IMG/VR virus record: IMGVR_UViG_2881147464_000001
Span: 9,453-73,452 of that record
DNA length: 64,000 bases
Source of the DNA: a virus
Reading direction: 5' to 3' (one strand)
Position numbers and translations under genes: made by a program. Under the pieces are notes generated by a model that saw only the letters and a list, made by a program, of their open reading frames with translations, was not told the DNA's origin and did not search any database. Below, piece after piece: positions 21,563-60,951 of the stretch (position 1 is the first letter of the stretch; the number at the start of each line of letters is the position of its first letter).

Positions 21563-22252
21563 ATGATTCTCGGTGGGCTCGATATAGCCACAACGACAGG
21601 CGCTGCCGTCCTCAAGGACGGCATCTTCACCGCCGAGACATTCGTCTTCAGCGGCGCGAAGAAGAAAAAGAGCATCCTTGATGATCTTGAGGAAAAGAAG
21701 GCACTGGACGCGGTCGAACTGGGGAAAGTGTTCGACTGGTTCGAGCGCGTTGTGCGCGTCTGGATCCTCACCCATGGCATCCAAAAGGTTGCGATCGAGG
21801 AACCGCTGCGCACCGACTTCAGCGGCCGGAAGAAGGCGGTTGTCGATGCCGGATCCAACTGGGCCGGCAAGTCGGTCACCTACGAGAAGAAGGGCGGTAT
21901 CAGCCTCAAGACGATCTTTAAGCTTCATGGCCTCGAGGCGGTTGCCTGCCGGGTGTGCGCCCAACTGAACATCCCGGCAGTCTTCGTCAATCAGGCGACA
22001 TGGAGGGCGGCCTTTCTGGGGCATGGGCGGCCGCCGGATGCCAAGTCGGAAGCGGTGAAGATGTGCCGCAAGCTGGGCATTGAAATCTCCAGCGTGGATT
22101 CGGCGGAGGCGGTTGGCGTGTGCTGGTGGCTCGATCGGACGCTCAATCCGTACAGCCATCGCCGGGCCAACGATCTCTTTGCCGATAAGCCGCCGACCAA
22201 TGCGCAGCGTCAGATCCAGGAGGCCGAGAAACTGTTCAAGGCTGCCACCTGA
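21563..22252 (+). CDS. RuvC-like Holliday junction resolvase
   Basis: GLDIATTTGAA, VAIEEP, ATWRAAFLG, DSAEAVGV. Confidence 0.75.
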   Translation: MILGGLDIATTTGAAVLKDGIFTAETFVFSGAKKKKSILDDLEEKKALDAVELGKVFDWFERVVRVWILTHGIQKVAIEEPLRTDFSGRKKAVVDAGSNWAGKSVTYEKKGGISLKTIFKLHGLEAVACRVCAQLNIPAVFVNQATWRAAFLGHGRPPDAKSEAVKMCRKLGIEISSVDSAEAVGVCWWLDRTLNPYSHRRANDLFADKPPTNAQRQIQEAEKLFKAAT

Positions 22253-22806
22253 TGTGGAATCGGATGACAAGAGAGGAGCGGATAGAGGCGATCCGCGACG
22301 GCGTCGGCTGCAACATGAGCAGCACGGAGATTGCGGCTGAAATAGGAGGGTGCACAAGGAACGCCGTCATCGGACTGGCTTACCGGGCCCATGTGGCATT
22401 GGCATCTCCACGACCGAAGGTGGAAAAGAAACAGGCGTCGGCGAGGCCAAAGTCGTCAAAGACCGGGTCGATGAAGAGGGTGGTAAAACCGACGAAGACA
22501 TCGCCTCCGGTGCCGTTGAAAAAGAAACAAGAGCCAGCCTTCGTCGATGCCGAGCCCATCTACGAATTCCCGGACAGCCATTACGAAGTGCATCTGGAAG
22601 AGGTCAAGAGCGGGCAATGCCGGCGGCCGCTGTGGAATGACGACAAGCGGCCGGGACTGGAAGCATACTTCTACTGCGGCAAGCCGGTGAAGGCCGGATC
22701 ATCGTATTGCTGGCATTGCCACAAGAAGATGTATGACGGCCTGCCGGTGCCGCGGGAGAGGAAAAGGTCAAGCGCGAGACTGTCCTGGCGCGGTGAGTTT
22801 GCTTGA
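22252..22806 (+). CDS. gcrA: GcrA-family cell-cycle regulator
   Basis: SSTEIAAEIGGCTRNAVIG; C-terminal CRRPLW...YCG...YCWHC. Confidence 0.88.
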   Translation: MWNRMTREERIEAIRDGVGCNMSSTEIAAEIGGCTRNAVIGLAYRAHVALASPRPKVEKKQASARPKSSKTGSMKRVVKPTKTSPPVPLKKKQEPAFVDAEPIYEFPDSHYEVHLEEVKSGQCRRPLWNDDKRPGLEAYFYCGKPVKAGSSYCWHCHKKMYDGLPVPRERKRSSARLSWRGEFA

Positions 22807-25665: not shown

Positions 25666-26354
25666 GTGAACTCCTTACCAAGGAGCAGGAGTACGCGCTG
25701 GCGGTCAGCTGGCGCGACCACAAGGATGTGAAGGCCATGAAGAAGATCATCGCCTCGCATCTGCCCTTGGTGCATGGCATGGCCAAGAAATTCGCCAAGT
25801 TCGATCTCGAGCATGACGACTTGGTTCAGGAAGGGGCGATGGGGTTGAAGTGCGCTCTTGATCGGTTCGACCCCGACATGGGCAACCGCTTCTCGACCTT
25901 TGCCAGGTGGTGGGTGATCTCCCACATGCAGACCTTCATCCTCAACAACTACTGCATCGTGAGAGGCCCCAAGGGGCACGATGCCAAGCGGAGATTCTAC
26001 AGGGGCGATCGTACCCGCCACGCGTCCTTGGACATGCCGGTCGGGGAAGACGGCAATCAGACATGGGTCGACATACTGGAGGGCGATGATCCGAACCCGG
26101 AGCAGATGGCGGAGCGCACGATCGACGGGGAGAGGGCAAAGGAAATCATGGATCTCGCGCTGGCGAAATTGTCCCCGCGTTCGCAGGACATCATCCGGCG
26201 CCGCGTCATGAGCGACGATCCCGTGACGCTCGAAGCGCTCGGCGAAGAGTACGGAGTCAGCCGGGAGCGCATCAGGCAGATCGAGGTGAAGGCGCTCGAG
26301 GATCTCAGGGCTGTTCTTGCGGTGAAGCGTCGGCGTGGGCTGGTGGCGGCATGA
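25662..26354 (+). CDS. sigma70-family factor, RpoH/RpoD-like
   Basis: HLPLVHGMAKK, DLVQEGAMGL, RFDPDMGNRFSTFARWW, TLEALGEEYGVSRERIRQIE; TTGA overlap. Confidence 0.9.
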   Translation: MSELLTKEQEYALAVSWRDHKDVKAMKKIIASHLPLVHGMAKKFAKFDLEHDDLVQEGAMGLKCALDRFDPDMGNRFSTFARWWVISHMQTFILNNYCIVRGPKGHDAKRRFYRGDRTRHASLDMPVGEDGNQTWVDILEGDDPNPEQMAERTIDGERAKEIMDLALAKLSPRSQDIIRRRVMSDDPVTLEALGEEYGVSRERIRQIEVKALEDLRAVLAVKRRRGLVAA

Positions 26355-30663: not shown

Positions 30664-31308
30664 ATGGTCCGCCCGAAGGCATTCGATGACGATCTGATCA
30701 AGAGTGGCCCCAAGCTGATGGCATTTGCTGTCAGCCTCGCCGGCGATCGTGATCGGGCCCTGGATCTCGTGCAATCGACGATGCTGCGTGCGCTTGAGAA
30801 GTTCGAGCAGTTCCAATCAGGGACAAACCTCCATGCATGGCTGTTCACGATCATGCGCAATGATTGGATTTCGACATGCCGCAAGCGCGGGCGCGAGGTT
30901 GAGGACGTCGACGATGCTTTCGCGAAAGCGGTTCCGATCGGCGAGGGGCAAAGTTCCGCCGTTGACCTGAAAGTCATACGCCGGCGCATGCGGATGATGA
31001 ACTCGGACATGCGCAAGGTGGTCGAACTCGCCACACTTGGTCATGAGTATCATGAGATAGCCGTGCGCTTCGGCATTGCCGAAGGGACGGTTAAAAGCCG
31101 TGTCAGCCGTGCGCGCGATTTCCTCGAATCCGGAGATGAGGCGACACTCGCCGAACCGGCGGCCGAAGTGCAGCCCGTTCCACGCAAGGCGACGATCACC
31201 AAATTGTATGAGCGTGGCGCTTCGACGACCGAGATCGCCGAGGCAACAAGCCTGACGCGCTCGGAAGTGATGCGCGCCATCGGCGAACTGAAGTTGAAGC
31301 GCAAATGA
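30664..31308 (+). CDS. ECF-type sigma factor
   Basis: DLVQSTMLRA, TNLHAWLFTIMRN, YHEIA...GTVKSRVSRAR. Confidence 0.88.
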   Translation: MVRPKAFDDDLIKSGPKLMAFAVSLAGDRDRALDLVQSTMLRALEKFEQFQSGTNLHAWLFTIMRNDWISTCRKRGREVEDVDDAFAKAVPIGEGQSSAVDLKVIRRRMRMMNSDMRKVVELATLGHEYHEIAVRFGIAEGTVKSRVSRARDFLESGDEATLAEPAAEVQPVPRKATITKLYERGASTTEIAEATSLTRSEVMRAIGELKLKRK

Positions 31309-54875: not shown

Positions 54876-55051
54876 TCGAGACCTACTACCTCGCTTGCGA
54901 GTATCACCGCCCGTATAAAGTTTTCCTCGATCTCAAGTCTGCAAAGGATGAGGTGCAGCCATTCATCGATCAGGGACTCAACTTTCAGGTGGCGGAAGTG
55001 GAAGTAAAGGCCTTCCACGAAGGGCAGGCATGGAAGCGTGACGTTGCATGA
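54872..55051 (+). CDS. small hypothetical protein
   Basis: Hand translation MIETYYLACEY...; ATGA overlaps both ends. Confidence 0.55.
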   Translation: MIETYYLACEYHRPYKVFLDLKSAKDEVQPFIDQGLNFQVAEVEVKAFHEGQAWKRDVA

Positions 55052-56019
55052 GGCAGATCGTCCGCATCAAATTCGGCTCGCATCTCTATGGGACGTCGAC
55101 TCCACAATCGGATCTCGACTTCAAGAGCGTGTTCATCCCGGACGGCAGATCTATCCTGCTTCAGCGGGCAAAGAATACGATCAACGACCAGCGCCCAAAG
55201 GCGGAGCGTGAGAAGAACTACGCCGGCGAGGTCGAGGAGGAGAGGTTCAGCCTCCAGCGCTTCCTTGGACTACTTGCCGAAGGGCAGACGGTGGCGCTGG
55301 ACGTCCTGTTCGCACCAGAATGGGCGATGACGGACGATCCGTCCTGGCACTGGCAAGAGATTCTCGACAACCGCGATCGGTTGCTGACGAGGAAGTCCGC
55401 GGCGTTCATCGGCTATGCCAAGCAGCAGGCAGCCAAATATGGGATACGCGGCTCGCGTGTCGCCGCGGCCCGGGCGGCATTGGCATTGTTGAAGGCGGCT
55501 CTTTCGGCGACGGACAAACTCGGCGGACTGGATCCCGACATCAGATCGTTGATGGTCAAGCACGACCACATGAGTCTTGTCGAGGATACGACGCCTCACG
55601 GGCAGAGAGTCCTGCTCTGGGAAGTATGCAACCGGAAAATGCCGTACACGGCGTCGATCAGGAATGCGCACGACATCATGCAACGCGTGGTCGACGAGTA
55701 CGGCAAGCGCGCGCTGATGGCTGAGAGCAACCAAGGAGTCGACTGGAAGGCGCTCTCACATGCCGTGCGCGTCGGAAACCAAGCAATCGAGCTCCTCCTG
55801 ACCGGTTTCGTGACCTTTCCATTGCCGAATGCTGCCCATGTGCTCGAGATCAAGCGGGGACTCCTGCCGTACCAGGTTGTGGCGGCAGAGATCGAGTACC
55901 TTCTCGAGCGCGTTGAGGCTGCGGCGGCAGCTTCAACGTTGCCAGCAGAGCCGGATCTGGCCTGGATCGACGACTTCGTGGCAAGTTCATATCGGGATGA
56001 AGTGTTAGGTGCGAGATGA
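55048..56019 (+). CDS. DNA pol beta-superfamily nucleotidyltransferase (RNA-repair-associated / NrdC.11-like)
   Basis: FGSHLYGTSTPQSDLDFKSVF; DWKALSHAVR. Confidence 0.85.
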   Translation: MRQIVRIKFGSHLYGTSTPQSDLDFKSVFIPDGRSILLQRAKNTINDQRPKAEREKNYAGEVEEERFSLQRFLGLLAEGQTVALDVLFAPEWAMTDDPSWHWQEILDNRDRLLTRKSAAFIGYAKQQAAKYGIRGSRVAAARAALALLKAALSATDKLGGLDPDIRSLMVKHDHMSLVEDTTPHGQRVLLWEVCNRKMPYTASIRNAHDIMQRVVDEYGKRALMAESNQGVDWKALSHAVRVGNQAIELLLTGFVTFPLPNAAHVLEIKRGLLPYQVVAAEIEYLLERVEAAAAASTLPAEPDLAWIDDFVASSYRDEVLGAR

Positions 56020-56375
56020 CCAGTTCAACCGATGAATTGCGGATCGCCGTCATTTTCCGCGCCGACATCGACATTCCGCGCGGCAAGGGGGAGGTCCAGT
56101 TCGGCCATGCGGTGGCATTGCTGGTTCACGGCGGCGGCGAGGTGGCCACTTCCTATATGGCCGGTCTCCAGATGAAGTTGAGCATGGAAGTCGATGATCT
56201 GGATGCGATAGCGCTCATTATGGCGAAGGCAAAGGCGAGGGGCGTTCCATTTGCGGTTGTCGAGGACGCCGGCCGGACCGTCTTCGGCGAGCCGACGATT
56301 ACCTGCATCGGACTCGGTCCGATGAACAAGACTGACTGCAACGCGCTGACGCGGAATGCGAGGATGCGGAAATGA
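56016..56375 (+). CDS. Pth2-type peptidyl-tRNA hydrolase
   Basis: [10 protein letters not shown]; [20 protein letters not shown]. Confidence 0.82.
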
Positions 56376-56917
56376 TCGAATGGCAAGCCAACTATCCATG
56401 CCGATATGGCGAGGCGCTAGAGGAGAGGGCGCTCGCCTTCGCGACCGCAGCGCACGCCTCGATCGACCAGCGCAGAAAATATACAAATCAACCGTACATC
56501 GAGCATCCAATAGCGGTCGCTGAGATCGTCCGGTCGGTTCCGCATACGCCGGAAATGATCGCCGCGGCATACCTGCACGACGTCGTGGAAGACACTCCAA
56601 TCACCTTGAACAAAATCCTCCAAGAATTCGGGCGCGAGGTAGTGACTCTTGTGTCCTGGTTGACTGACGTCTCTTTGCCGCTGGACGGCAACCGCGCCGC
56701 TCGGAAGGCTATCGACCTGGCGCATACCGCCAAGGCGCCGTCGGCCGCGAAGACGATCAAGCTGGCCGATCTGATCGACAACACGCTTACCATCAAACAG
56801 CGCGATCCGGATTTCTGGCGCGTCTACCGGCATGAGAAACTGCGGCTGCTCGATGTGCTGAAGGAAGGTGACGCAACGCTCTGGGCGCGCGCGGCCGCGC
56901 AGTGTGATGTCCCGTGA
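56372..56917 (+). CDS. HD-domain RelA/SpoT-type small alarmone hydrolase (SAH/Mesh1-like)
   Basis: FATAAH..QRRKY..PYIEHP; [11 protein letters not shown]; LTD; IKLADLIDN. Confidence 0.88.
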
Positions 56918-59246: not shown

Positions 59247-59564
59247 ATGACGAGATGGCAAGCAAGTCGATATGTGCATCAGCCGAAATTCGACACCATG
59301 AGCAACGACTGGCGATCCGAACGTGAAGCAGAAGAATCGCTGATCGTTCGCAACGGCAACGGCCCCGTCGGCTCGCCACAATGCAACATCGTTGCAAAGT
59401 TCATGCGCACCGAAGATCGCGATGAGGCTGTCCGCATCGTCAACGCTCATGATGCGCTCGTGGCAGCGCTGGAGCGTGTCATCTTTGACATTGATGAGGT
59501 GCACGATGTGCGACCATCAACGGTCAAAGTTGTTGAAGACGCTCTGGCGGCGGCGCGAGGCTAG
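59247..59564 (+). CDS. hypothetical protein
   Basis: GGAGG SD; IVNAHDALVAAL motif. Confidence 0.6.
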   Translation: MTRWQASRYVHQPKFDTMSNDWRSEREAEESLIVRNGNGPVGSPQCNIVAKFMRTEDRDEAVRIVNAHDALVAALERVIFDIDEVHDVRPSTVKVVEDALAAARG

Positions 59565-59860
59565 AGCCCGGCGATCGCCTTGATCGCCTTGTCCTTGGCA
59601 TTCTTCACCTGGGTTTCGGAGAGGCCATATTTCCGAGCCGTCGTTGCCTCTTTCGGCATGGCCTGCGGAGCGATCGGGCCCAGCACTTCACCGAGGATGC
59701 TCTCGTCGATCTCTCGGATTCCCTTGATGGCTTCCTTCAAACTGGTGATTAGAGAAATGGCGCGGATACCGGTTGGGACGAGTTTCGCTGCCTCGGCCTG
59801 CCTGATCACCTCGTCGATCTCGGCGATGCTCATGATTGAAAAGTTGACTGATGTAGCCAT
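59561..59860 (-). CDS. lone antisense hypothetical protein
   Basis: GGAAGG SD before MATSVN; helical. Confidence 0.55.
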   Translation of the reverse strand: MATSVNFSIMSIAEIDEVIRQAEAAKLVPTGIRAISLITSLKEAIKGIREIDESILGEVLGPIAPQAMPKEATTARKYGLSETQVKNAKDKAIKAIAGL

Positions 59861-60149
59861 GGAACTGCCTTCCTGTTGAAAAACGTCGATTTCAAAGCAC
59901 GGAAAGGCGCATAACGTCAACAGTGCCAAGGGTTTTTGATGATTCTGGCGGTCAATTTCGAAAGAACTGAGCGCCAGGCAGCGTGAAAAAACTTCGAATT
60001 TCGTAAGAACGCTTGGCGCTGTTTGGGTTTCGCCATATACCAGAAATTGTGTTCACAAAAATCTGAAAGACTACCTGTTGTGTCTTTTGCAGAATGCGAG
60101 TCATAAGAGCCGCGAAAGATGGATTCATGTCCAAGACGGAATCAAACCC

Positions 60150-60182
60150 ATGAACGCTCTCCAGCAACAGCGGCGCCGGTAA
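60150..60182 (+). CDS. candidate leader peptide MNALQQQRRR
   Basis: ATG AAC GCT CTC CAG CAA CAG CGG CGC CGG TAA, ends 7 nt before tRNA-Arg. Confidence 0.35.
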   Translation: MNALQQQRRR

Positions 60183-60189
60183 CCATCAC

Positions 60190-60266
60190 CGCCGCGTGGC
60201 TCAACTGGATAGAGCATCAGATTTCGACTCTGAGGGTTGTGGGTTCGAATCCTACCGCGGCGACCA
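60190..60266 (+). tRNA. tRNA-Arg (anticodon UCG)
   Basis: Acceptor CGCCGCG/CGCGGCG, anticodon arm TCAGA-TTTCGAC-TCTGA, T-loop GGTTCGAATCC, encoded CCA. Confidence 0.93.
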
Positions 60267-60267
60267 T

Positions 60268-60341
60268 TCCCGCTTCGTCTAATGGTAGGACACCGCCCTT
60301 TGAAGGCGTGAATCGTGGTTCGAGCCCATGAGCGGGAACCA
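60268..60341 (+). tRNA. tRNA-Gln (anticodon UUG)
   Basis: Acceptor TCCCGCT/AGCGGGA, loop CTTTGAA, T-loop GGTTCGAGCC, encoded CCA. Confidence 0.92.
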
Positions 60342-60354
60342 AAAGATCTTGGCC

Positions 60355-60486
60355 ATGAGATATCTCCTCATCCTTCTCATGCTCGCCGCATGCGCCGCGC
60401 CCCATGGTGATGGCATTTCCGATCGCGAGGCGCGCGGAATAACCGACGTCTTGAAGCAAGCCTTGAGCAAATCCGACCACCAATAG
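60355..60486 (+). CDS. small lipoprotein (43 aa)
   Basis: MRYLLILLMLAAC lipobox. Confidence 0.55.
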   Translation: MRYLLILLMLAACAAPHGDGISDREARGITDVLKQALSKSDHQ

Positions 60487-60489
60487 CAG

Positions 60490-60790
60490 ATTGCGCGACT
60501 GACCAGCGCGCTACAGTGCAACCGCGCCTCTGGCCGGTTCACGCGGGATGATTCCCGCATTTGGTCCGCGAGATTGAGCCTGCGGCGAGCGAAACGCCGA
60601 ACGTATCCGGAGAGGCTCGCCGGCAAACACAGCACCGGCTCTCGCGGCCATCAATTCCCAGCCGGGTCTGGCCTCTGTTGGTCGCCAAGCGCCCTTCAAG
60701 CTCCCCGGCTTAGTTCTTCAAGACCGTAGTAGACATCAGAACGCCACTGGCGGGACGATGGGCTACGGCACCATTTCCAACAAGGGAGAG
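60490..60790 (+). ncRNA. candidate multibranch structured RNA / long 5' leader
   Basis: Nested perfect stems 60543-60647; no credible ORF. Confidence 0.4.
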
Positions 60791-60795
60791 ACAGC

Positions 60796-60900
60796 ATGCT
60801 CGCAGATCTTATCGTTCTCGCAGCCGTCGGTGCGGTCGCCTGGTACTTCCGCGCGCCGATCATCGCGTTCATCAAGAAGACCTTCGGCACCGCCGAGTAA
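60796..60900 (+). CDS. 34-aa single-TM peptide
   Basis: MLADLIVLAAVGAVAWYFRAPIIAFIKKTFGTAE; AAGGGAG SD. Confidence 0.6.
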   Translation: MLADLIVLAAVGAVAWYFRAPIIAFIKKTFGTAE

Positions 60901-60951
60901 GCAATCTTTCGGCGGTCCATTGGGCCGCCGTTTTCCTTTTTCGGAGAACGC

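Follow-up and report, generated by a model that had tools for sequence, protein, structure and literature searches.

Among the leader-peptide transcription attenuators are trpL and hisL, the multivalent thrL and ilvL, and pheM-pheST, and leader-peptide sensors often act on termination. In translational attenuation of the ermC/cat type, a stalled ribosome blocks the duplex that sequesters the ribosome-binding site of a protein gene. Leaderless sensors are known in mycobacteria in the form of leaderless polycysteine sORF attenuators (10.1101/834739). For tRNA processing, RNase P is blocked in vivo when the 5' leader is paired, and a synthetic RNase P riboswitch has been engineered; direct riboswitch control of the RNase P cleavage site had, according to that study, not been demonstrated before (PMC7897497). 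Phage tRNAs can also offset tRNA-cutting defences (PMC11555353). In our literature search, with most subscription journals lying outside it, no account of leader ORFs that gate tRNA genes was found. Here we describe a phage locus at which, on the reading we consider probable, a ribosome stalling on a short leader ORF acts as a switch that controls tRNA folding and maturation by RNase P.

The DNA analysed (the window) comprises 64,000 nt of the virus record IMGVR_UViG_2881147464_000001 (108,657 bp in total), record positions 9,453-73,452, and all coordinates below are window positions unless a related locus is named. The window appears to be part of a Mesorhizobium prophage, because a host-like gene at the start of the record matches two genomes from a single rhizobial genus at 86% identity and one window protein, present on a 7.78-Mb contig, has its named homologues in Mesorhizobium. 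No cultured relative was found; phage records match only in tRNAs, plasmid matches are essentially confined to tRNA, and database matches of the terminase are only about 31% identical. The prophage contains two tRNA genes only, Arg(UCG) and Gln(UUG), flanked by a divergent 99-aa gene (59561-59860, minus strand) and a sialyltransferase-like gene that precedes the terminase gene. Both have the canonical cloverleaf, anticodon and 3' CCA, and the acceptor stem forms with P=1.00 when folded alone. The tRNA-Gln is a single base apart from a host-genus chromosomal copy, with C for G at 60292 at the top of the anticodon stem, so that a former G-U pair becomes a mismatch. Compensation for codon bias was considered as an explanation for the pair and rejected: CGA and CAA make up 10% and 23% of their codon families in the late genes, which is not above a rough host sample (14% and 22%). 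By Rfam, nothing but the two tRNAs in the window, and nothing but tRNAs in 17 family loci, reached the gathering score, with no riboswitch aptamer or T-box before the tRNA genes in either. The possibility that a tRNA or an Rfam RNA lies hidden upstream of tRNA-Arg was also considered, but none was found.

Table 1. Positions of the leader, the tRNA genes and the neighbouring elements in the window
Feature	Position	Strand	Basis or remark
Promoter-like block	60078..60144	+	TTG element; GAGTCA 60098-60103; GAATCA 60139-60144; extra GANTC 60122
Second mini-ORF, MSKTESNP and stop, 8 codons	60127..60153	+	Overlaps leader start by ATGA
Leader mini-ORF, MNALQQQRRR and stop	60150..60182	+	Sequence; same DNA in L138/L139 and L140
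Anti-tRNA strand	60156..60180	+	20 predicted pairs with 60188-60215 (spacer end, 5' strand of the acceptor stem, D arm)
Sensing codons CAG CAA CAG (Gln), then CGG CGC CGG (Arg)	60162..60179	+	Mask model and family tracking
7-nt spacer	60183..60189	+	Same in L138/L139/L140; 5' leader of pre-tRNA-Arg and loop of OFF hairpin
tRNA-Arg(UCG)	60190..60266	+	CCA encoded; ARAGORN, Rfam tRNA 66.4 bits
tRNA-Gln(UUG)	60268..60341	+	1 nt after tRNA-Arg; ARAGORN, Rfam 55.5 bits
Intrinsic-terminator-like site	60910..60940	+	9-bp stem and T run; consensus match only

The layout described by the first-pass annotation, a mini-ORF ending 7 nt before tRNA-Arg with tRNA-Gln following directly, agrees with the coordinates, ARAGORN and Rfam (Table 1), and the sequence confirms that its tandem Gln and Arg codons match the two downstream tRNAs. 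Longer in-frame versions starting from TTG at 60078 or 60087 were rejected; these starts fall within the promoter-like block, and the copies with an SD in related loci lack them. A public contig, possibly the source sample itself, matches 59625-60800 with zero differences. Exact-pattern scans of viral contigs for the leader and for the leader-tRNA junction gave no match, and the leader was not found in 202 representative genomes of the host genus by a search run without a positive control. The terminator-like site likely marks the end of a short tRNA transcription unit. Between the tRNAs and this site lies a GC-rich, non-coding candidate RNA with a strong fold (60486-60790, -125.5 kcal/mol); two diverged contigs share its 60531-60654 part with one difference. 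Genes for an RlaP nucleotidyltransferase, a Pth2 peptidyl-tRNA hydrolase and an HD hydrolase lie consecutively at 55048-56917, 3-5 kb upstream of the tRNAs, and the related locus L146 has RtcB nearby; the row of three looks like an RNA/translation repair kit, which fits translation repair without proving it.

Upstream of the leader, GAGTCA/GANTC and GAATCA stand at a fixed 41-nt spacing in 16 family loci, with two occurrences of this arrangement in the whole record, and the block that contains them is a putative promoter. Its 60098-60144 part holds three GANTC (CcrM-type) sites, two of them at the fixed spacing. The window also encodes a GcrA-family protein (22252-22806, Pfam E 2e-16) and two sigma factors (25737-26354 and 30664-31308), and the putative phage promoter is possibly methylation- or GcrA-dependent. 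A conserved, apparently structured non-coding segment of approximately 90 nt follows the promoter block in L001 (2080-2170) and in L133, L136, L137, L138, L140 and L142; it has no Rfam match.

Whether the codon runs of such leaders track tRNA identity was analysed in related prophages, gathered via the two flanking proteins, in which 21 family tRNA heads were scored. The 33-nt ORF and its spacer recur without change before Arg(CCG)+Gln in L138/L139 and before Arg(UCG)+Gln in L140, in differing upstream contexts and each with an AAGGA SD, and the diverged contig X3 has the same direct leader layout as the window. Other heads carry other codons. In L005 (Rhizobium lusitanum), nine of the 15 codons in the leader before Ser(CGA)+Ser(GCU) are Ser codons (TCG/AGC/AGT), and a second leader of 14 codons, with one Lys and three Gln, stands before Lys+Gln tRNAs. 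L136 has a different Ser/Tyr leader before the same Ser+Ser pair, and L140/L142 have AGA, TGG, CGA and AGG before Arg(UCU)+Trp+Met. L001 has an HNH-like ORF, with an SD and ATG inside it, whose final TTTTA and stop lie 5 nt before Thr(CGU), and in another cassette of L139 a strong-SD ORF runs through tRNA-Pro and ends in TTTTA and stop before Thr(UGU). The latter ORF (L139 minus strand, approximately 1035-1250) has 43 codons, starts before tRNA-Pro(CGG) and stays in frame across the whole tRNA-Pro gene; it may gate two tRNAs. The L136 leader has two Tyr codons, and a Tyr(GUA)-like tRNA-shaped sequence lies behind Ser(GCU) on the minus strand of that locus; this sequence was rejected as a tRNA, being below the ARAGORN and Rfam thresholds, and the Tyr match is therefore soft.

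With one automatic score over the 21 heads, the family reached 33.9, whereas permuted tRNA labels averaged 8.4 (0/5000 permutations); when the window cassette and duplicates were left out, the values were 17.8 and 4.9 (again 0/5000). Only 1 of the 148 control heads (43 host tRNAs from one genome, 28 host-genus Gln genes and 77 other viral or Arg-UCG loci) reached p<0.01 for codon match; among the controls were the mostly unrelated contigs returned by a scan for the promoter pattern. A leader was absent at 10 of the 21 family heads, all of them Met-, Gly- or Leu-first. The Arg(UCG) tRNAs outside the family had no leader, so the leader is no general property of tRNA-Arg(UCG). Thus a short ORF with cognate codons that co-vary with the regulated function, as in attenuators, is found in six cassette types, and the expectation that related phages keep mini-ORFs whose codons follow their tRNAs was borne out.

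Several further elements were seen around the family tRNAs. HNH-like ORFs are inserted in the tRNA region of L001 (2192-2902, the frame fused to the Thr leader), of L005 (1396-1863, a tRNA 3'-half remnant following the gene) and of L138/L139 (upstream of the leader). A conserved hairpin of approximately 55 nt without an Rfam match occurs in L042 (2385-2440), L146, L147, L148, L150 and L151, often directly before Gly or Met tRNAs that lack a leader. On the minus strand of L279, from a tRNA-rich, unrelated phage, tRNA-Lys(UUU) is entered by a mini-ORF with many Lys residues (MKRKHKPRKP...); this is possibly another sensor, and no anti-tRNA fold was predicted for that head.

The window leader is complementary to nt 1-26 of tRNA-Arg. 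In equilibrium models, which leave out tRNA tertiary contacts and modifications, the leader:tRNA hairpin had an MFE of -40.2 kcal/mol compared with -31.1 kcal/mol when the cloverleaf was enforced, so that the hairpin is predicted to replace the tRNA-Arg cloverleaf in the naked transcript. Addition of 60 upstream nt abolished the predicted acceptor stem in all 11 leader-bearing heads (P<=0.09); the same happened in 2 of the 9 family heads that lack a leader and in 20 of 146 controls (14%). None of these 146 controls combined the misfold with a codon match, at a cut-off (p<0.06) that was chosen after the data were seen. Among 400 synonymous variants, the native codons ranked high for pairing in the window (3), L139 (5), L140 (5), L142 (15), L005-Ser (2) and L136 (4), with L001 at 23; no synonymous bias towards pairing was seen in three other leaders (ranks 109, 176 and 55), and a duplex-energy shuffle test was significant in only 4 of 11 heads.

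We then modelled a translating ribosome as a mask from -13 to +15 relative to the P site, set at each codon in turn, and read out the probability of the acceptor stem. For tRNA-Arg of the window this was 0.00 in the free transcript, at most 0.25 at codons 2-4, 1.00 at codons 5-10 and 0.01 at the stop codon; with a 3' edge at P+15, the modelled cloverleaf forms only when the A site is on Gln5-Arg10. The result shifts with the edge of the footprint, the stop codon still being ON at P+12 and Arg10 being OFF at P+18. Comparable ON windows across the cognate codons were predicted for L140 and L142, in which the leader ORF extends into the tRNA, and for L005, in which the Lys head was barely OFF folded alone (0.86). 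L139-Thr was ON only on the four final Thr codons; L139 was ON already from codon 2, L136 retained 0.67 at the stop codon, and L001-Thr showed no ON state at any mask position. When both tRNAs were included in the fold, the naked window transcript misfolded both and masking restored only 0.31, compared with at least 0.9 in L139; control of tRNA-Gln in the window is thus less certain.

From these results we infer the following course of events. In the naked transcript the leader would pair with the 5' strand and D arm of tRNA-Arg, a hairpin taking the place of the cloverleaf, and the leader would be translated by a ribosome. With ample charged Gln and Arg tRNA, the ribosome would clear the six codons fast, overlap the tRNA 5' end at the stop codon and depart; the hairpin would then re-form, RNase P would have no substrate, and the precursor would decay or stay uncut. 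With these tRNAs scarce or cut, the ribosome would dwell on Gln5-Arg10 and mask the anti-tRNA strand, which would allow the cloverleaf to form and be processed, with tRNA-Gln probably released too. The fresh tRNAs would end the pause, giving negative feedback. The phage would thus probably mature its Arg and Gln tRNAs only when the cell is short of them, the likely purpose being to make up, in lytic growth, for tRNAs removed by the host's tRNA-cutting defences or by starvation.

How far do other explanations account for the same data? The first-pass annotation had allowed for coincidence, and the leader is indeed short and GC-rich with a weak SD. We give a chance mini-ORF next to no credence and count it as refuted by the conservation and codon tracking described above, since copies identical to the leader recur in other contexts; the 108.7-kb record, moreover, contains 577 mini-ORFs of 7-15 codons that start with ATG, and only this one has its last six codons all Gln or Arg. 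A codon match that is merely a by-product of complementarity, the leader being a relic of an inverted duplication or a pre-tRNA folding element independent of translation, seems very improbable to us. The acceptor strand is rich in C and G and complementary to the Arg codons, and part of the match therefore follows from pairing; yet the leader is no plain inverted copy, since it departs at its Gln codons from a perfect reverse complement of the tRNA 5' end, and that complement, when read from the leader's Ala codon, runs into a stop at the fifth codon. The runs also match the unpaired second tRNA (Gln, Trp, Ser-GCU), and 7 of 9 leaders have an in-frame SD and ATG. Unlikely, in our judgement, is a third explanation, in which the same codon sensor acts on transcription and the OFF fold brings about Rho-dependent termination or a polymerase pause while the tRNAs are still incomplete. 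That output would be in keeping with the frequent action of leader-peptide sensors on termination, and it would simply explain how one leader apparently gates two or three tRNAs. However, no intrinsic terminator was found on the sense strand from leader to tRNAs in the window, L005, L142, L139 or L136, the strand that the family leaders pair with belongs to the tRNA itself, which is only 5-22 nt off or overlaps, and termination when tRNA is sufficient would also shut off the downstream genes and the later cassettes in L139/L140. The first-pass annotation had proposed a stalling sensor acting on either transcription or processing; the sensor is supported by the codon tracking, and of the two outputs folding/processing is favoured because of the missing terminator and the pairing with the tRNA.

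A further alternative, which we regard as quite unlikely, concerns the window copy alone: the switch would be real in relatives and silent here, with the SD lost, the leader untranslated and the tRNAs locked. The SD noted earlier as weak proved to be so (-3.5 kcal/mol, compared with -5.4 in L140 and -5.7 in L139), the SD-bearing spacer is missing, and the two leaders without an SD site are those of the window and L136. Against a silent copy, the leader ATG lies exactly 5 nt behind GAATCA in the window and, independently, in L136, which suggests a leaderless start for both and resembles the mycobacterial polycysteine sORF attenuators (10.1101/834739). X3 retains the direct layout, neither leader nor spacer is damaged, the predicted OFF fold leaves the ATG unpaired, and the ATGA overlap with the second mini-ORF permits re-initiation. 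This overlap, as first described, is present; a supporting role for the second mini-ORF has fared less well, as an ATG or GTG at its position occurs in only 7 of 16 loci, all in the closest subgroup, and in L138 it lies 634 nt away from the leader. Re-initiation is thus a doubtful alternative route to leader translation.

The ribosome-stalling switch on tRNA folding that we prefer resembles the trpL, hisL, thrL, ilvL and pheM attenuators in that a short ORF carries codons of the sensed tRNA, the codon strand is predicted to pair downstream and, in the model of the window and most cassettes, the position of the ribosome would select the fold; like the multivalent ones, it would sense two amino acids in tandem. 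Unlike in trpL-type attenuators, what is regulated would be the tRNA itself, with its acceptor and D arm as the pairing partner, and a terminator/antiterminator was not found in the five loci scanned. With the mycobacterial polycysteine sORF (10.1101/834739) and ermC/cat it would share a stalled ribosome that blocks a sequestering duplex without a terminator; however, those systems sequester a protein gene's ribosome-binding site, whereas here the duplex partner is the 5' strand of a tRNA. The locus would work like a leader-peptide attenuator, but neither the terminator nor the sequestered ribosome-binding site of the known classes was found. In the synthetic RNase P riboswitch, too, a hairpin masks or exposes the 5' end of a pre-tRNA and so gates RNase P (PMC7897497). 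That design is engineered, driven by theophylline and masks the 5' leader only, with the tRNA fold intact, whereas the proposed switch is natural, driven by the ribosome and invades the tRNA. The supply of phage tRNAs against tRNA-cutting defences recalls T5/SP15 tRNA-Tyr and retron Eco7, where rescue depends on a strong promoter and the portion of the account available gives no codon sensor (PMC11555353). Extra tRNA genes that are silent by default and induced by translational stress are found in the Anabaena trn operon under TrcR, which in the accessible part of the report is a matter of a protein repressor and transcriptional control (PMC10272220).

Why phages carry tRNAs is a long-standing question, the answers being codon bias or the replacement of destroyed host tRNAs. 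We lean, if only slightly, towards a general reading of the family as a natural, modular control of tRNA maturation, in which the test ORF of each cluster carries its codons and an antisense to its first tRNA and the stalled ribosome serves as a folding chaperone; the phage would thereby detect when a specific host tRNA is lost and provide it anew without a protein regulator or terminator. If this is true, a tRNA gene that is OFF by default would be turned ON by slow decoding of its own codons, giving supply on demand, and maturation of a natural tRNA would be gated by a translating ribosome, for which the only precedent found is engineered. The Arg+Gln leader cassette, of approximately 200 nt, could serve as a portable reporter for depletion of specific tRNAs, and the leader codons of these phages would reveal which tRNAs are attacked.
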